NCBI GenBank assembly: GCA_020619395.1
Contig: GCA_020619395.1_4860.1
DNA length: 64,000 nucleotides
Strand: one strand, 5' to 3'
Source: a phage
The notes under the pieces were generated by a model that was given only the letters and a program-made list of their open reading frames with translations, was not told where the DNA came from and searched no databases. How positions within the stretch are numbered: the stretch's first letter is position 1; every line of letters begins with the position of its first letter. Shown here piece by piece: positions 22,512 to 32,536 of this stretch. A program made the translations under genes and the position numbers.

Positions 22512-22592
22512 GGGGCGAGCAAACGGACGGATTCGAACCGTCGAAATATCCGATTATGAGTCGGGTGTTAATTCCTCTAACTTCGCTGCTCT
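22512..22592 (-). tRNA. tRNA-like sequence, anticodon CAU (Met or Ile2); non-canonical acceptor stem
   Basis: minus-strand T-arm GACGG-TTCGAAT-CCGTC, anticodon stem-loop CCGA-CTCATAA-TCGG and D-arm GTTA-GAGGAAT-TAAC found by hand; acceptor pairing imperfect. Confidence 0.35.
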
Positions 22593-22661
22593 TGCTTTGA
22601 CCGGACTCGAACCGGCGACCTTCCTCGAAGAGGTTGCTCTACCTACCTGAGCTACAAAGCC
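22592..22661 (-). tRNA. tRNA-like sequence; anticodon loop TTCGAGG (possible CGA) with a very short variable region
   Basis: minus-strand acceptor GGCTTTG/CAAAGC, D-arm GCTC...GAGC, T-arm GCCGG-TTCGAGT-CCGGT; isotype not resolved. Confidence 0.35.
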
Positions 22662-24013: not shown

Positions 24014-24089
24014 TGGCGGGGGCACGAGGTTTCGAACCTCGAACCTTCGGTTTTGGAGACCGGTGCGCTACCAATTGCGCCATACCCCC
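24014..24089 (-). tRNA. tRNA-Trp (anticodon CCA), 76 nt with encoded CCA end
   Basis: hand fold: acceptor GGGGGTA/TGCCCCC, D-arm GCGC-AATTGGTA-GCGC, anticodon loop CTCCAAA, T-arm CGAGG-TTCGAAA-CCTCG; anticodon arm identical to E. coli tRNA-Trp except one base. Confidence 0.8.
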
Positions 24090-24182: not shown

Positions 24183-24674
24183 TCACCTCCGTAATTCGTA
24201 AGTGCTAATCTCACCACCGGTGTAGATATCGCATTCAGACGCAATCTCAATAGCACGAACCGCACTCGCGCCCATCTTCATCGCACCCAACGCATACTCG
24301 TAACCGCTTCCGGTTGCCAGAGGTGGTGTGGCTTCACTCCACCACAACGTCACGTCGTCTTCACGTTTTCCGCCGACTATCGCTTTTCCTGAGGCCAAAA
24401 GCATCAGGAAAGTAAAATCCATCTTCGCAGGTAACTGCGAGCTTTGTGTTAACCCCTTGTAGCCGGGTCTCAAGCGGACCGTTTCCAGCAGGGCCAACTG
24501 TCCTGTGATGTCACCGCTTACTCCGAACGCCACAATCCGTTCACCAGTAATCCACCACTCCTCGTCAGGAGGACAGACGAATAACTTCTGGGTATTCAGG
24601 TTGCAGATATTCGACCCACGGGTTAACTGGCCGTCAGCAGCTAAGACTTTTCCATCGAACGCTATCGTCGTCAT
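24183..24674 (-). CDS. HslV/proteasome beta-subunit-like N-terminal nucleophile peptidase
   Basis: start at internal Met gives MTTIAFDGKVLAADGQLTRG, matching the HslV N-terminus [24 protein letters not shown]; also GSGYEYALGA and CDIYTGGE segments. Confidence 0.65.
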   Translation of the reverse strand: MTTIAFDGKVLAADGQLTRGSNICNLNTQKLFVCPPDEEWWITGERIVAFGVSGDITGQLALLETVRLRPGYKGLTQSSQLPAKMDFTFLMLLASGKAIVGGKREDDVTLWWSEATPPLATGSGYEYALGAMKMGASAVRAIEIASECDIYTGGEISTYELRR

Positions 24675-25246
24675 TGGGCCACCTTCCTCGGTGTGTACTC
24701 GAATGTCGTTTCCGTCAGGTAATCCTGGCGCATCCAAGTCAGCTCCTGGCCTTGCTCACACTTGATGTTCGTAACCAAACCGGCTTCAAGTGGTAGCTCA
24801 CAGACCGAAACGATTCCGGGTTTATCACCGTCCCAATGTGCGAATGCCGCCTCGGGGGTTGTTGCCCCGACGATGATTCCGGCGTCGACATAGTCTTCGG
24901 TAGCGACGTCGCTGTAAACCAGGTACAGCTTGATGATCGACGGTTGCTTGGCTTGGTAGCCGAAGTACACTCTGGTTTTACCCGTGGTAAGATTCCAGGT
25001 GTGTCTGGCGGATTCGGAAACAAATTCCAAACCGGGATGGGAATAATCATCCCAACGGCCTTGCTTCAGAACCACCCCAGGCGTAACCATCGGGGTAGAC
25101 ACAGCGCCGTCGTAGCAGCACGCAACCGCTGGACGCTCTGCGCTAACCGGCCAGAAGGATTTGGCCTGCTCCTCGTTTTCGGCTAAGACAACCAAAACCG
25201 ATTCAGGCATCTCGTTTCGGTAAAACCCGACGCGATACAAGTTCAT
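24671..25246 (-). CDS. hypothetical protein (191 aa) with an internal two-fold repeat; translationally coupled to the HslV-like gene
   Basis: GGAGA upstream; ATGA overlap with the downstream gene; repeat VLVVLAENEEQAKSFW / AGIIVGATTPEAAFAHW. Confidence 0.55.
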   Translation of the reverse strand: MNLYRVGFYRNEMPESVLVVLAENEEQAKSFWPVSAERPAVACCYDGAVSTPMVTPGVVLKQGRWDDYSHPGLEFVSESARHTWNLTTGKTRVYFGYQAKQPSIIKLYLVYSDVATEDYVDAGIIVGATTPEAAFAHWDGDKPGIVSVCELPLEAGLVTNIKCEQGQELTWMRQDYLTETTFEYTPRKVAQ

Positions 25247-26189
25247 GGTTTAATTCTCCGTTTGGTTTATCATACCTCACGCAGAATCTGTAAATTTTAA
25301 TCAGCCAGGTACCGTCGTTTCTCAACGGGAGTACCCACCCCTCTCGTCTATTCCGAGCCGTCAAGATCCGATCACCCCACTTTGGAGTTATCCCCCAAGT
25401 CTGCGGTTCTACACGCAGACCCCTTTTCGACGCAACGCCGAATTCGAATCAGTTTTGGCCCGACGCCAGAGCGGAATCAGCGATAACTATCGGAGGTAAG
25501 TTCAACGACGTCTCTCCGCTGCCCAGTCCTCTGGCGCTGCCACGGTCAACTCGGATTTTGTCATGGGTGCGCAGTCGACTTTCTCGACACTCTCGCAAAC
25601 CGAACTACGCCCGACGTAGCACCGTCGGCAGGTCGGTTATTTACCGAGTACCTGAATGGGTGGTGATTGTCGGAATCCCCGCCGACGCTCACCGGTTCTG
25701 TTCCACGGCGAAAGTTTTCCAGAACATAATAAATCACGCAGTGTTAGATTGCGCTTTGTCGAAGACACCACGGTAGGTATTTTCGAAAAAGCGTCCTGGG
25801 TATCAGTCCCAGGACTTGGAGCCCTAGCGTGCAGGGTTTAAAAGTGATTGGACCATTGGCGCGGTCAATCGCTATTCGCATATAACAACAAACTCACGTA
25901 ATCAAAAAATTACCGGCTCGAGGCGTAGGCGTCCAGGAGCCGGTGAGTCACACAGCAGTGAGTCCCTCTGCGGGGATTTTCGTGGAGCTTGTCGTTGGAA
26001 TAAAAATCCGTCCCCGGACGGGTTGGTGTTGTGGGTCGACTTGTCAGAGTCTACCGACCAGGGAGGCGACCACCGAAGCTATGGGTTTTGGACATCGAGT
26101 GGTGGTCTGAACACACGATAGGGAAACCACGTAAAAAATACACAGGGTACCCAAACTAGGACTTCCGTCCGATCACGATCTCTTAATAA

Positions 26190-26400
26190 GGATCACGCGC
26201 GCGCCTGCACGCGTTTTAAGATCTTAATATATTAATATATTTATTTATATAAATAATTATAATAATTAAATATAATACCTAAAGGTATTATTATATTTAA
26301 TATTATTATATATCTTTTAAAAGATCCTGGAGGATACGGGTGTGCGCACGCGCACGCGTATAAGGAAAGGGTCTTCGACCCGATCCACAGGATCAATCTA
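26190..26400. other. candidate replication origin / DNA-unwinding element: about 115 bp of nearly pure AT with palindromes, flanked by alternating CG tracts, GATC sites and a DnaA-box-like ATCCACA
   Basis: CACGCGCGCGCCTGCACGCG at the left; perfect 12-bp palindromes TTAAGATCTTAA and TCTTTTAAAAGA; central AATACCTAAAGGTATT; GTGCGCACGCGCACGCG at the right; GATCCACAGGATC at 26380. Confidence 0.4.
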
Positions 26401-26959
26401 AAAAACAATCTAAGTGATTGTTTTAAAAAGAAATTTTGAGAATTAGATTAAATTATCCCCTAAGGGGGATTTTAGAGCGAGTTAAACAACCCAAAGAACT
26501 CGTAAGTAACCGACAGTGTGTGTCGGTTACAGAACGATCCAGTTTTCACCCAGACATGGCACGAAGTGCTACCCAACGTGTGATCGTCGTCGCCGGCCGC
26601 GACCGTCGTCCCGGAACCGAAACGGGAATGGCACTCTCGCGCTCTCAGCGGCCCGCTGGCGCGATTTTCCGGTATGGGGAACCCAAGTGTACTGGGTCTG
26701 AGTTAAATCTCGTTCTAGCGCTTTCTAGAGCGTTTTTAATAACTGGTTAAAAAACATACAATCCTGAATCCCCATTCCCTGAATTTCCTCGCCCCGACAA
26801 AAATAAATTCTCTGTCTCGATACATAACCCCCTCTAAAACGCACGTAACCGACCCTAGAAAACGATAAACTGCCAAAAACGAGCTACCCTACGTCGATAC
26901 CACCTAATCGTTTTCTGATGCTTCCCAGACCCCTTTAACCGGTTGGTTAAAAAGTAACC

Positions 26960-27009
26960 AAAAAAATAAAAAAAAATAAGATTGGCGTACTCCCCGAAGA
27001 GAGTACGCC
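26960..27009 (-). terminator. intrinsic terminator (GGCGTACTC...GAGTACGCC hairpin with long A-run on plus)
   Basis: hairpin immediately downstream of the gene ending at 27017. Confidence 0.55.
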
Positions 27010-27016
27010 TAGTGAC

Positions 27017-27526
27017 TTAACACTTGATGGTGTAGCCATCAAGGCCAAGGTGTACTGGTTTTATCCATAACCCTGGCTCCCCGAAAATATTCAGGTCGTA
27101 AGTTTGGTAATGCATGATCTTTGCAGGAACATGCACACCCATGCGTTGCAGAAATTCCCAGACGGCGACGTAGCGTTCACGAGTGATGAACATTAGCCCG
27201 GAGTCGAACCCGGAACCGATGTCTAGGAAATTACCAAGAGAACTGTCAAAACTTGACACCCCATCTTGAGTAAGTGCGACCAACCCTTTAGTTAAATCTC
27301 TGTGGTTGTCAATGAAGTTACAGAGATCTACGATGGTTATTTGACCGTAAATACGACGGAGGACGGCAGCAACAGCCAAAATCTCGCTGGTATTTCCGTA
27401 GTCACCTAAAGGGTTATGGTCCATCATCGCAGTAATTATGCTTGTGTCGCAGAGGTCGATTAACCGCTGGTCATGTACCACCAGGTTAAGACCTTGCCCC
27501 ACCTGCACGGTTGGCGCAGTAAACAT
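27017..27526 (-). CDS. hypothetical protein (about 169 aa; start at internal ATG)
   Basis: AAGGAG 7 nt upstream of the ATG at 27526. Confidence 0.55.
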   Translation of the reverse strand: MFTAPTVQVGQGLNLVVHDQRLIDLCDTSIITAMMDHNPLGDYGNTSEILAVAAVLRRIYGQITIVDLCNFIDNHRDLTKGLVALTQDGVSSFDSSLGNFLDIGSGFDSGLMFITRERYVAVWEFLQRMGVHVPAKIMHYQTYDLNIFGEPGLWIKPVHLGLDGYTIKC

Positions 27527-27536
27527 AGGAGGCTCC

Positions 27537-28670
27537 TTACGTTTTGACTGACTGTGAAGGTACTCTGGCATCGTACATTAAAAAGATTTCCAGCAGGCTC
27601 ATACCCGTCGCGTAAAAGATTTGGTCTGTGATGACACTCACTAACGCATCTGGGTCAATCGCATCTACTGCAAAATCGCTGTCGAACTGCCAGAACTCGA
27701 CATCATCCCCCTTTTCAAACGTCGCGGCATACAATCCAGGTTTCACACCACGCCGGAACGAAAAGAGTTTTGCGTCAGACTCAGTGTCCTTACCATAAAT
27801 TTCCCCGTCGGTCCGTGTGATCGCTGCGCGTTTACACCGAGTTACCGTAAGGAGCGCACGGTTTGCAGATGCTTGCGATTTAAACGGATAGGGGCCATCG
27901 TATGTCGGGACATTCTGGTCGCCTAAGGCATCAAGTGCCTTACTCCGATAGACTACCGGAGACTTAAAATTACACAGTCGATTCCCTTCGGTAAACATTG
28001 TGTATTCGACCTTAACGTCGGTACCGACGAGGTCAGCAGGGGACACTTTGTAGTGTGCTAACTGTCCCTGCACGCGGCGAGAGAGCATCGATGCCAGGAA
28101 GGTATGGTTGCCCTGTGTACGCAAGACATAACCGAACTCTGTGCAGTCGACGATACGAGCGTCCATACGTCGTACAGGCTCTAGCCGGTAAGTCACATCA
28201 TTCGCTTCGATAAGAAACTGACTGATGCTAACATCGCGAGATCGATGTTTGATTGCTTCAAACACTTCACCCGCTTCCAGAATAGCTGGTTCAATTACAT
28301 TGACCTGGAATGGGAGGGGTTTCGTCGGCCGTTGACCCATTGTTGTCACTGTCATCGAACGTAGCCACGGATCGTCCTCGCTAGGGTCATTGGAAAGCCA
28401 ATGTGTTAACCAGCGAGAAAGGTTCTGAGGAATCGTTGCGGTTGAATATAAAATCACGGTACCCATTATACCTGCATCAGCTAGCAAGCGCGCGAGTACC
28501 GTGTTCATCGAATCGTATTTGCCATTTCGAAGAATAGGTAATCCCCCGACCTGGACCATTTCGCAGATGACGCCGTGCGGCAGCACCCACATCTTCACTT
28601 GTTGAGCAGAATGTATCTGCCCAGTGCGCAGCTTTTCTTGCCACGCGTGCTTACGTTCATAGTTCATCAT
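27537..28670 (-). CDS. hypothetical protein (377 aa)
   Basis: long ORF. Confidence 0.6.
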   Translation of the reverse strand: MMNYERKHAWQEKLRTGQIHSAQQVKMWVLPHGVICEMVQVGGLPILRNGKYDSMNTVLARLLADAGIMGTVILYSTATIPQNLSRWLTHWLSNDPSEDDPWLRSMTVTTMGQRPTKPLPFQVNVIEPAILEAGEVFEAIKHRSRDVSISQFLIEANDVTYRLEPVRRMDARIVDCTEFGYVLRTQGNHTFLASMLSRRVQGQLAHYKVSPADLVGTDVKVEYTMFTEGNRLCNFKSPVVYRSKALDALGDQNVPTYDGPYPFKSQASANRALLTVTRCKRAAITRTDGEIYGKDTESDAKLFSFRRGVKPGLYAATFEKGDDVEFWQFDSDFAVDAIDPDALVSVITDQIFYATGMSLLEIFLMYDARVPSQSVKT

Positions 28671-30185: not shown

Positions 30186-30428
30186 TCAGGCGAGTGCTCC
30201 CGATACGGCAACTTGATGTAGGGTATACACAACGTGTAGCCCCGCGGTCGATAGTCCACCGATAAGCAATACGCCAAAGCTACAGATAATCTGACCGAGC
30301 CGCATTGTGCGTGTGCAGACATCGTGGCTTTGTGCGTGTATGCGTATTACTTCGATGGTGTGGCGTAAGCCAAAGTATAGGCAAATCCACATTACCAGCA
30401 CGATTGCGTAGTAGAGTTGAGTCATCAC
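30186..30428 (-). CDS. small membrane protein (80 aa, two hydrophobic helices); holin-like candidate
   Basis: hydrophobic segments YYAIVLVMWICLYFGL and ICSFGVLLIGGLSTAGLHVVY; 4-nt overlap with the terminase gene. Confidence 0.45.
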   Translation of the reverse strand: MMTQLYYAIVLVMWICLYFGLRHTIEVIRIHAQSHDVCTRTMRLGQIICSFGVLLIGGLSTAGLHVVYTLHQVAVSGALA

Positions 30429-32536
30429 TTCATCCTCTGTCGTTGGATTAGCTCTTTCAAGCTTTCCATCGATGCGACGTTACGAACGTCAGTGTTGAGT
30501 TGAGAGACGAGCGCTTGAATACGATTCTTGTACATGAGCTGTTGTACCGGGTCGGCTACAACTTGACTCTGCCTAATCATCGTTTCAATTTGCCCCATCA
30601 GTTGTTGTTGCTTTTCTTCTTCCTCGACTGCAGCCTCTTCATCGAATTCACCTGCCATGCCCCCGAGCATATTGCGGTTGCGCATCATCAGTCGGCTGTT
30701 ACTTATACCGTAGTGGCCTAAGTTGTTGCCGAACAGAAGTAACCACATTGCCAGGAGCCAGGATATTACCAGGTCATCGTGACCGGATGCACGGTGGTCT
30801 ATGCGCCCGTTTCGTTCGACGAGACCGAGGATTTGGTCGATCAATTCGCCTGACCGCAGTAAGTCCGCAGAAAGACGCAACGCCGTGGTAAATACTTCAC
30901 CATACAACTTACGGCGTTTATCCTGGTCGGTTGAGAAACCGATGTATTTACGGAATTTGTCCCAGAAGCGCTCTGGACTGCCCACAGGGCCACGATGGAA
31001 CTCTTTGTAAAGTTCATCGTTCCTTGAGTAATCCTGGGTCACTTTCACGTACAAACGACGATGCAAATCGCGAACCTTAGATTGCAGCTGCAGTATGATG
31101 GCATCTGCTACCGAGGAGCCGGTAGACCGTCGTTCCAGAATGAGTACCGTGTTCGGATATTCGATCATGAAGTCTGCTAAGTGAATCGCAAACCCGATGA
31201 CGTTTGTTTCGTTCACGGTGAGCTTGCCGGCATATTCGGCAGTGACAGAGTTGACGATTGACATGGCAATGGCGTCCCGCCCCACGGCTTCGGAAGTATC
31301 CAAACCGATGATGTGGCGGTCTTGCATTTTAACCAGCATCTGTTCTTCGGTGTAATACCAATCCGTTACGTAGTTGGAAGCAGAGATAATTTTCTGTGCT
31401 GCCCGAATACGCGAGGCGTTCATACGTCTTGCATCATCGCCTGAGAACGGTTTGTTGTAACCACCGGTTGTCCATTCACCACCGAAGTCACGGCGGATTT
31501 GGTCTGGTGTACCTGGGGCGTTCGCAATCATATCTGCGAGTTCTTCGTCCGTGGTACCGAGTTGGCGGTGGTTGTATTTCACGTAGAACATGATACGTGG
31601 AATCTTCGCAGTAGAGCCTTTGCGAATCATGTCAATCAGTTGTGCACGAGTCGGAATGTCGATATACCGTTCATCCCACGAAATCCCCGACGTCATCAGG
31701 CTGTACATGTACTCGCCTTCTTCTGTCGCCAAATCCCCAGGCGTTGTTGCGAAGACGTTGCCGTATGGAACACCTTCGGCTTCGTTAATACGACGCGCCG
31801 CGGTACCCGATGCTAGTGCAGCAGGGAGGATATGGTGGATGTTGTTGGTAAACGGTCCTTCATCCGAGAACAGGCGTCCGGCTGTGAGTCCACGGCCTAC
31901 CCCGTTCGCAGCTTCCTTATCGTTTTGACCGATGCCGGTGATAAGTTTGTTACCCTGCGCTAGACATGCAAATGTCTCACGGTTATCAGGATCGTCCGGG
32001 TGATGTGGCCAGAGATAATCCGGTAACGCGTTACGCAGTTGTTTCATTTTGTTGATAGTTTCTTCACGCAGGGCAGGACCCTTCGTGATAAGAATCGTAC
32101 GTGAGTTCTCCAGGAAGCGCATCAGCCACAATAGCAATGCGGACATCCCGACAGTTTTACCATGCTGACGGAGAAACTCGATAGCGGCGTCGATGTTGTT
32201 GAAGAAAATCCAATACATCGAAAAGTTACCGCGGTCTAGACGAAACGGCATCCCGTTCTTTACACCATCCGCAGGGACCCGGACACACTCACGGAAGAAG
32301 TACCATGGGTTTTCCGCACACTCCGTAACAATCATCGCTTTTTGTTCGAGTGTTAAATCCGGGCTAAACGGATCAACACCACGGAGTTCGGGATTGTGTA
32401 ATGCCAGGTGGACGTACCAATGCTGGACACCTAATCCTTGTAGTGTTGTGGCGAATTGAAGGAAGTGCACGTTTGGTGTGACATCGTCAACAATCGCCCC
32501 CGGATAGTGTCGCCAATCGTTTTTTCGCAGTATCAT
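30425..32536 (-). CDS. terminase large subunit (T4 gp17-like)
   Basis: Walker A-like LRQHGKT near the N-terminus, resembling the T4 gp17 P-loop; size 703 aa. Confidence 0.6.
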   Translation of the reverse strand: MILRKNDWRHYPGAIVDDVTPNVHFLQFATTLQGLGVQHWYVHLALHNPELRGVDPFSPDLTLEQKAMIVTECAENPWYFFRECVRVPADGVKNGMPFRLDRGNFSMYWIFFNNIDAAIEFLRQHGKTVGMSALLLWLMRFLENSRTILITKGPALREETINKMKQLRNALPDYLWPHHPDDPDNRETFACLAQGNKLITGIGQNDKEAANGVGRGLTAGRLFSDEGPFTNNIHHILPAALASGTAARRINEAEGVPYGNVFATTPGDLATEEGEYMYSLMTSGISWDERYIDIPTRAQLIDMIRKGSTAKIPRIMFYVKYNHRQLGTTDEELADMIANAPGTPDQIRRDFGGEWTTGGYNKPFSGDDARRMNASRIRAAQKIISASNYVTDWYYTEEQMLVKMQDRHIIGLDTSEAVGRDAIAMSIVNSVTAEYAGKLTVNETNVIGFAIHLADFMIEYPNTVLILERRSTGSSVADAIILQLQSKVRDLHRRLYVKVTQDYSRNDELYKEFHRGPVGSPERFWDKFRKYIGFSTDQDKRRKLYGEVFTTALRLSADLLRSGELIDQILGLVERNGRIDHRASGHDDLVISWLLAMWLLLFGNNLGHYGISNSRLMMRNRNMLGGMAGEFDEEAAVEEEEKQQQLMGQIETMIRQSQVVADPVQQLMYKNRIQALVSQLNTDVRNVASMESLKELIQRQRMK

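Follow-up and report, generated by a model that had tools for sequence, protein, structure and literature searches.

A conserved single-copy A+T-rich element of Seoulvirus and related jumbo phages as a candidate replication origin modulated by Dam methylation

Described origins and packaging sites compared with the Seoulvirus element

The oriF and oriG origins of phage T4 and the primary origin of T7 combine a promoter with an unwinding element, and oriS and oriL of herpes simplex virus (HSV) have a central A+T-rich palindrome with inverted copies of a binding site on its flanks. In oriC of Escherichia coli and oriR of P1 an A+T-rich unwinding region lies beside protein-binding sites, and GATC is strongly over-represented. 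For oriC the density is 11 copies in about 250 bp (PMC11447400). The packaging site of P1, pac, is 161 bp long, contains seven GATC-containing hexamers in groups of four and three around a central point of cutting, and is cleaved in a methylation-dependent manner (PMC10028697). In this study we analysed a stretch of 64,000 nucleotides of phage DNA (GenBank assembly GCA_020619395.1, contig GCA_020619395.1_4860.1; hereafter the window) from a Seoulvirus phage, one of the SPN3US-like jumbo phages of about 240 kb in the Chimalliviridae, closest to phages of Salmonella. It contains a single-copy, putatively cis-acting module of approximately 380 bp (26090-26470) with an A+T core of 109 bp at its centre (26214-26322). 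This element resembles the Dam-regulated origins and pac sites of enterobacteria, yet it is without the features that define them, namely DnaA boxes, iterons, the set of P1 hexamers and a position within a terminase gene or a recognisable initiator gene, and without the phage promoter consensus. As the best of several readings, we suggest that it could be the replication origin of the phage, of the unwinding-element type and modulated by Dam, a reading to which we assign a probability of roughly 0.4.

With oriC and oriR the element has in common an A+T-rich, putatively unwinding region next to candidate protein-binding sites, its presence in single copy, and hosts that are Dam-positive Enterobacterales, and its GATC content (seven in 225 bp) recalls that of oriC in particular. 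It differs from both in the lack of DnaA boxes and 19-bp iterons, in having no more than one loose 13-mer-like sequence, in an A+T region that is much longer and purer, and in having a methylase that is encoded by the phage itself. Likeness to P1 pac extends to the size (~160-225 bp), to seven GATC sites divided four and three, to a Dam-type methylase of the phage, to single copy and to the neighbourhood of a terminase gene, whereas the element, unlike pac in the small-terminase gene pacA, is not within a gene for a terminase subunit and has 109 bp of near-pure A+T at its centre. We know of no small subunit of the PacA/PacB type in this phage family. As in HSV oriS and oriL, inverted motifs face each other across the core (AGGATC on the left, GATCCT on the right), and both belong to large double-stranded DNA viruses that replicate in a nucleus or nucleus-like compartment; there is, however, no homology of sequence or protein, the core is several times longer and the flanks are asymmetric overall. 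Finally, the T4 and T7 origins also belong to virulent phages with their own transcription machinery, place an A+T region by a promoter-like sequence and precede a later phase of recombination-driven replication, for which the Seoulvirus phage has a UvsX-like recombinase, but no recognised phage promoter abuts the core of the element described here.

Composition, conservation and architecture of the element

Statistics at the scale of the genome were computed on the whole of SPLA5c, a near-identical genome of 239 kb in which the sequence of the element is identical to that in the window. With only seven G/C positions (~6% G+C), the core accounts for the only 100-bp segment below 28% G+C in the 64 kb, and the only one below 25% in SPLA5c. 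By nearest-neighbour calculation it is also by far the least stable duplex of that genome (-88 kcal/mol per 100 bp, where the average is -140 +/- 6; z = 8.5), and the next least stable spots (z = 4.7) are the promoter-like motifs of the phage. The seven GATC sites of the element lie within 225 bp, while the best other 250-bp segment has three in the 64 kb and four genome-wide. This is in a genome in which GATC is depleted (495 observed against 932 expected, 0.53; 2.1 per kb), as is CTAG (observed/expected 0.20). The alternating purine-pyrimidine tract on the right of the core, of 23 nucleotides, is the longest strictly alternating run of the genome, the runner-up having 18; the left tract has an 11-nucleotide run of 91% G+C, which is joint second-longest and the most G+C-rich among the alternating runs of at least 70% G+C. 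SPLA5c contains no second copy of the element. The nearly pure AT stretch, the flanking CG tracts and the several GATC sites named in the initial annotation of this locus therefore hold, the first as a genome-wide outlier and the last as the top GATC cluster of the genome.

One architecture is found at syntenic positions in Seoulvirus, Erskinevirus, Machinavirus and Wellingtonvirus and in three metagenomic contigs, two from IMG/VR (L070 and L072) and one of 223 kb from a bin labelled Shewanella, so that the check for the same element in relatives, which had been proposed at the outset, showed it to be present, syntenic and constrained. Besides the metagenomic loci, those read were from Asesino and phiEaH2 (Erskinevirus), Huxley, SNUABM_43, Caitlin, SNUABM_4 and SNUABM_9 (Machinavirus), Kwan and SNUABM_11 (Wellingtonvirus) and the divergent Seoulvirus phages SPAsTU and SNUABM_29. 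A megablast search with 24500-28500 matched 41 phage records, the best being Salmonella Seoulvirus at 96-99% identity, and within Seoulvirus the element is almost invariant (genomes ~96-99% identical over an 800-bp query). By sensitive blastn of 25900-26700, only 26169-26370 aligns in Erwinia jumbo phages of other genera, at ~79% identity. From left to right the shared order is an outer block ending in GTAAAAAAT, GATC pairs, CTC(T/G)TAATAAGGATCACGCGCG, an A+T core of 85-115 bp, AAAAGATCC(C)TGNAGGA(A/T)A, an alternating CG/CA tract, GCGTATAA(T/G)GAAAGG, a variable hairpin, TAAGTnnnTGTTTTTAAAAGAnAATTTTT and a closing G+C-rich hairpin. A scan of IMG/VR with the invariant 15-mer gave 120 matches, nearly all of them by chance, with the element itself in the two contigs L070 and L072 only, and the element was not matched in complete genomes and plasmids of E. 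coli.

What is conserved differs between the core and its borders. Between genera the core stays rich in A+T and 85-115 bp long, and it retains a short hairpin whose apex includes G+C (ATACC..GGTAT, ATCCC..GGGAT or ATATC..GATAT), while its sequence is free; even within the genus it has undergone a 17-bp A/T insertion (MET_P1_082_240, at 26229/26230) and a 2-bp deletion. At the right border, the motif AAAAGATCC-TG-AGGA-A is invariant in 11 of the 11 genomes of alignment A1 and is found also at loci L070, L072, L141 and L146. A core that maintains composition and length between invariant border boxes is the classic signature of an unwinding element. Alternating runs of 15-25 nucleotides, of differing sequence, are present in 11 of 14 relatives, and 11 of 14 have 5-8 GATC per 370 bp against 1-3 per kb in the flanks. 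A T-to-C change in the right tract within Seoulvirus leaves the alternation intact.

The left part of the module begins with an outer block, B1 (..CATCGnG..CACACnAnnGGGnAAnCnnGTAAAAAAT; 26090-26139), in which GTAA is invariant, and the columns CATCG and CAC.A..GG.AA nearly so, in alignment A2 (10 genomes, four genera). It is followed by the left GATC pair (CGATCACGATC; 26171-26180), paired or clustered GATC being likewise placed in Seoulvirus, Erskinevirus, Wellingtonvirus and most Machinavirus. The left box B2, GATCTCTTAATAAGGATCACGCGCGCGCC (26177-26205), holds an AAGGATCAC site together with the beginning of the CG tract; TC..A.A is invariant and TAAGGATC.CGCGCG is at least 90% conserved in alignment A1, and the box is identical in six Seoulvirus genomes. 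The left alternating CG tract, CACGCGCGCGCC-TGCACGCGT, runs from 26194 to 26214 (CACGCGCGCGCC at 26194-26205), with an ACGCGT site at the border of the core, and has a counterpart of variable length in relatives. Within the core a central imperfect palindrome is present as first described, with arms at 26244-26277 and 26289-26322 that are 71% complementary and a hairpin apex AATACC-TAAA-GGTATT at 26274-26289. Compared with shuffled sequence its folding gains only modestly, the z score being -1.9 in this phage and between -0.7 and -3.5 in relatives. The two perfect 12-bp palindromes to which attention had been drawn, TTAAGATCTTAA (26216-26227) and TCTTTTAAAAGA (26313-26324), are both present in the window, but such palindromes are expected by chance where a sequence consists of A and T alone, and SPN3US, SaP7 and MET_P1 lack the 'TC' of the second.

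To the right, B3, AAAAGATCCTGGAGGATAC (26319-26337), is the invariant heart of the element, with inverted half-sites ATCCT/AGGAT and one GATC. Next is the right alternating tract GTGTGCGCACGCGCACGCGTATA (26340-26362), which is prone to Z-DNA and is also a G+C clamp. It is overlapped by B4, GCGTATAAGGAAAGG (26356-26370; GCGTATAATGAAAGG in Erwinia phages), in which GCG..TA...A.G is invariant in alignment A1 and which is like a -10 hexamer, with no promoter of the sigma-70 type called. At 26369-26394 are a small hairpin, GGGTCTTCGACCC, and the right GATC pair (CGATCCACAGGATCA), including a non-conserved ATCCACA; relatives have a hairpin of other sequence in the same position and, in most cases, paired GATC. 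The right outer block B5, TAAGTGATTGTTTTAAAAAGAAATTTT (26411-26437), has AAGT...T..TTT..AA invariant in alignment A1 and carries a further TTTTAAAA motif, separated by about 105 bp from that in B3, and the module is closed by a G+C-rich hairpin, ATCCCCTAAGGGGGAT (26455-26470), of conserved position but with stems elsewhere of CCGGCCTTAGGGGCCGG, CCCGGCTAAAGGCCGGG and GCCAGCTGGAGGCTGGC. Across the whole, GATC occurs at 26171, 26177, 26191, 26220, 26323, 26382 and 26391, four and three around the centre. Short motifs recur: (C/A)AGGATC three times (in B2, in inverted orientation in B3, and at 26388-26394) and TTTTAA(AA)GA three times with a spacing of ~100 bp, while GC(A)CGCGT forms imperfect direct repeats on both sides of the core (repeat family D3).

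The only open reading frame across the element, of 55 codons on the minus strand (26241-26408), is broken by the 17-bp and 2-bp indels within the genus, and the element is therefore non-coding. A protelomerase target or hairpin telomere was also considered and rejected: the palindrome is only 71% complementary, the flanks are asymmetric and no such enzyme is annotated in SPLA5c. A likeness of ACGCGCGTATAATG to N15 telO was treated as a coincidence. To the left of the element, non-coding sequence at 25930-26090 (GGTCGACTTGTCAGAG...GGAGGCGACCACC...GGTGGTC) is conserved in Seoulvirus, SPAsTU and SNUABM_29. Some of its segments are complementary to each other, and it could represent a further structured RNA or binding region.

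At the syntenic site of Derbicusvirus (CR5, Phobos and EarlPhillipIV) there is a milder A+T region (~20% G+C) with different repeats, CATTCATT-like and TAATTGAT/ATCAATTA. It ends in CCCCCCTTGATCCCCCCTTCCAAAGGATAAG, with a looser GATCC-N11-AGGATAAG at the border that corresponds to B3. This region may be a diverged functional counterpart of the element. In Phobos a canonical promoter motif follows the A+T region and is directed into the next genes.

The replication-origin reading and its rivals

The element is genuine, occurs once and is under constraint, and its structure is complex enough for a platform on which proteins assemble at the DNA. If it is the origin of replication, its core, where the genome is by far the easiest to open, would serve as the DNA-unwinding element. 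Proteins of the phage would bind the border boxes, TAAGGATCAC on the left and AAAAGATCCTGGAGGATAC on the right, together with the outer blocks B1, B4 and B5, and the bound proteins, or the torsional stress that they impose, would melt the core and allow the divergent DnaB-like helicase and the polymerase to load. The G+C-rich alternating tracts may keep the bubble from spreading and could take up supercoiling by a transition to Z-DNA. The phage does encode a divergent DnaB-like helicase (PF20307) and a DNA polymerase, which need an entry site, and this was counted in favour of an origin.

Occupancy of the boxes would probably be modulated by N6-adenine methylation through the phage Dam, as at oriC and P1 oriR. 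The phage has a D12-class N6-adenine methyltransferase of the Dam family (PF02086; TIGR00571 at 241 bits, cut-off 115), and homologues of it occur in each of the four genera in which the element is found. Most of the conserved boxes contain GATC, so that methylation probably affects whatever binds there. In CR5 (78000-112000) GATC is found 16 times against 132 expected (0.12); no Dam gene was found in the syntenic 34 kb and the GATC cluster of the element is absent, although as a single evolutionary event this joint lack is only suggestive. GATC is not depleted in Goslar (1138 observed against 917 expected).

Several observations weigh against an origin. Replication that depends on recombination of the UvsX type may need an origin only briefly, and the features of the element also fit a pac site of the P1 type, with the large-terminase gene about 4 kb away. 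Proteins encoded by the neighbouring genes have no Pfam match and no recognisable initiator gene adjoins the element. DnaA boxes (TTATNCACA) with at most one mismatch are absent from 25047-27060, and are not enriched in the window as a whole (44 found, 54 +/- 7 expected). The DnaA-box-like ATCCACA that had been proposed (26383-26389) matches TTATCCACA at seven of nine positions (26381-26389) and is not conserved in relatives, so that this proposal is not supported. No family of three or more direct repeats of ~17-22 bp was found that could be iterons, only the short recurring motifs; of the 13-mer type of unwinding repeat (GATCTnTTnTTTT) there is one loose instance, GATCTTAATATAT at 26220, in an A+T core that is itself extreme, and the direct-repeat families are low-complexity A/T. 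Caitlin, SNUABM_4 and SNUABM_9 keep the core and B3 but have only one to three GATC and a 7-nucleotide tract, which implies that the GATC cluster and the long alternating tract are accessory or dispensable; Dam is kept even in this lineage, which lost most of the GATC sites. Goslar, which infects E. coli and belongs to a different chimallivirus genus, has no comparable A+T island or GATC cluster (minimum 22% G+C), and the element is thus a feature of the SPN3US-like clade, not of the family as a whole. Nor does cumulative GC skew, one of the checks first put forward, show an inflection at the element in the window or in SPLA5c, but because the skew tracks gene orientation and transcription it cannot locate an origin and neither supports nor refutes one. 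In sum, the unwinding element of the initial annotation is favoured by the conservation pattern and by uniqueness, while the part given there to host DnaA is unsupported.

The packaging site that had been named as an alternative is a serious rival, although on balance a doubtful one. In this case a terminase or accessory protein would bind Dam-methylated GATC boxes, the first cut in the concatemer would be made in the A+T centre, and headful packaging, which these phages are taken to use (PMC6256631), would follow. The four-and-three layout of GATC, the Dam methylase of the phage, the single copy and the position downstream of the large-terminase gene all agree with the logic of P1 pac. However, only one of the seven sites fits the P1 hexamer TGATCA/G (CGATCA, which is TGATCG on the other strand), the element is outside any terminase gene, and one lineage has lost the GATC cluster. 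Near-pure A+T over 109 bp, conserved in composition only, is also what one would sooner expect in an unwinding element than at a point of cleavage.

Record ends bear on the same question. Many GenBank records start or end at or near the element, and several independent assemblies end inside the core, which was counted in favour of a pac site: JN03 and SPFM17 at 26230, SPFM2 at 26277, SPFM16 at 26285 and Proteus phage 7 at 26291. Such breaks are expected from sequencing and assembly bias, since a palindrome of 6% G+C predictably loses coverage, and they are thus compatible with physical ends and not evidence for them. The junction 26229/26230 is both the site of the MET_P1 insertion and that of breaks in four GenBank records (JN03, EC001, Lh1B and SPFM17), and looks like a hot spot of slippage or assembly breakage in the core. 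Record ends were rejected as evidence of physical ends in any case, base 1 of the Erwinia phage records having been set by alignment (PMC6256631) and EC001 having been realigned to JN03 (PMC8812316). EC001 was moreover assembled as a circle and described as circularly permuted (PMC8812316), which also speaks against pac.

It is unlikely that the element acts in transcription control, as a promoter, UP element, terminator or insulator hub for a phage RNA polymerase that would drive the minus-strand gp9-HslV-tRNA genes and/or a plus-strand structured RNA starting after GCGTATAA(T/G). Motif discovery in SPLA5c gave a promoter-like family, yAAAnnnATTTCAGATA(T/G)ATATTAYCTnAGTGAG, with 23 sites on the sense strand; it is almost confined to that strand and is mostly upstream of genes, and in the window it occurs on the minus strand at ~43624, 21164, 18194, 10191, 2088 and 672. 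Promoters of the phiKZ-type virion RNA polymerase carry TATATTAC-N6-G, as does this family (PMC5312081). These motifs are, as noted above, the least stable sites of the genome after the core, which might be taken to favour a promoter, and the motif has no copy in the interval from the gp8 terminator to gp9, so that the genes there must have a different promoter unless they are reached by read-through. B4 is TATAAT in Erwinia phages. Yet an early virion-polymerase promoter (consensus AGATA[T/G]ATATTAYCT) can be rejected: with a position weight matrix made from 16 sites, no position in the element scores above 2.4 bits, while the 23 genomic sites reach 23.7 bits or more. A sigma-70 scan found only one weak site, at the level of shuffled sequence.

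Terminator-like hairpins are enriched in 25200-27100 (10 found, 2.1 +/- 1.1 expected), and the hairpins on the right of the element (26369-26381 and 26455-26470) hold fixed positions while their stems differ fully by genus (ATCCCC/GGGGAT, CCGGCC/GGCCGG, GCCAGC/GCTGGC), a pattern that suggests a transcribed structured RNA; they may represent a small structured transcript or terminators. On the other hand, the sole Rfam match over the element is sub-threshold (E = 0.12), to a trypanosome mitochondrial rRNA model, and is attributed to base composition, and RNAalifold returned no consensus structure for the downstream hairpins, because MAFFT had misaligned them. An ordinary promoter, furthermore, would not be expected to be unique or to combine an A+T core, a GATC cluster and the longest alternating tract of the genome.

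That the element is a site of structure-specific breakage seems improbable. The A+T palindrome, helped by the Z-prone tracts on its flanks, would extrude as a cruciform or hairpin to be cut by the SbcCD-like nuclease of the phage, and the resulting double-strand end would seed UvsX-dependent replication or form a recombination hot spot. A central palindrome is indeed present in most genera, SbcC-like, SbcD-like, UvsX-like and RuvC-like proteins (the last a resolvase) are encoded, indels favour 26229/26230, and gene content beside the element varies between genera. But the hairpin energies are modest compared with shuffled sequence, cores of the Kwan type are weakly symmetric, and the features that are invariant are the asymmetric boxes and not the palindrome. 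Non-function, whether the element were low-complexity A+T sequence without a role, left behind by a mobile element or created in assembly, might be argued from the chance palindromes of low-complexity A/T, the tolerance of the core to indels and the GC(A)CGCGT repeats that flank it. The conservation data effectively refute this reading: more than 40 genomes from four genera, each sequenced independently, have the element at the equivalent position, its boxes are invariant where the neighbouring protein is only ~48-60% identical, and there is no other copy in the genome.

Neighbouring genes and meaning for nucleus-forming phages

The element sits in an interval of 1.77 kb without an annotated gene (~25247-27016), and is itself unannotated in all records examined. 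The interval is bordered by a gene of unknown function (27017-27526, minus strand) and, at its other end, by a block of genes, likewise all on the minus strand, that includes those for an HslV-like peptidase and a tRNA. tRNA-Trp (24014-24089) is the sole tRNA reported by ARAGORN; two adjacent weak tRNA-like genes at 22518-22589 and 22592-22661, on the minus strand, were found with Rfam (30.6 and 40.9 bits) and are absent from the ARAGORN output. The large-terminase gene is at 30425-32536, and the distance of about 4 kb is measured from its 3' end.

The product of gp7 (27537-28670, minus strand, 377 amino acids) has no Pfam match and no match to a PDB sequence, but its AlphaFold model, with a pLDDT (predicted local distance difference test) of 85, has as its top Foldseek matches only ATP-dependent DNA ligases (Chlorella virus, T7 and T4; E ~1e-5). 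The conserved KxDG lysine motif is not visible in it, and gp7, already named 'putative DNA ligase' in two GenBank records, may be a divergent or inactive protein of ligase fold. Such a fold does not discriminate among the readings of the element. The structure model of gp8 (pLDDT 53) is too poor to interpret. In SPFM1, 5-10, 12, 14, 15 and 20 (LR535901, LR535903-08, LR535911-13 and LR535917) the window is matched only in many short pieces, with gp7 and gp8 fragmented. These records look low-quality and rich in frameshifts, and are therefore unfit for fine comparison.

In the literature we found no origin, pac site or description of this element for SPN3US-like phages or other chimalliviruses. 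The element offers a sharply defined candidate of 380 bp with specific boxes, and either an origin or a pac site would be new for the family. Chimalliviruses replicate within a protein-walled nucleus that excludes many host proteins, so that host DnaA and SeqA may not reach the phage DNA; how, and by what, that DNA is first opened is the question that the element addresses. More speculatively, and with odds that we consider low, this could be the first cis-acting origin identified for a nucleus-forming jumbo phage, of a new design with an unwinding core of ~110 bp between Z-prone clamps, gated by the Dam of the phage and not by host DnaA, SeqA or Dam, and perhaps serving also the persistence of a 'carrier' episome. 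Over 300 Seoulvirus genomes have been found in bacterial assemblies, which suggests an unintegrated 'carrier' state (PMC12768965). A defined origin or pac site would be useful both for the engineering of therapeutic phages and for understanding how these phages persist in bacterial isolates.

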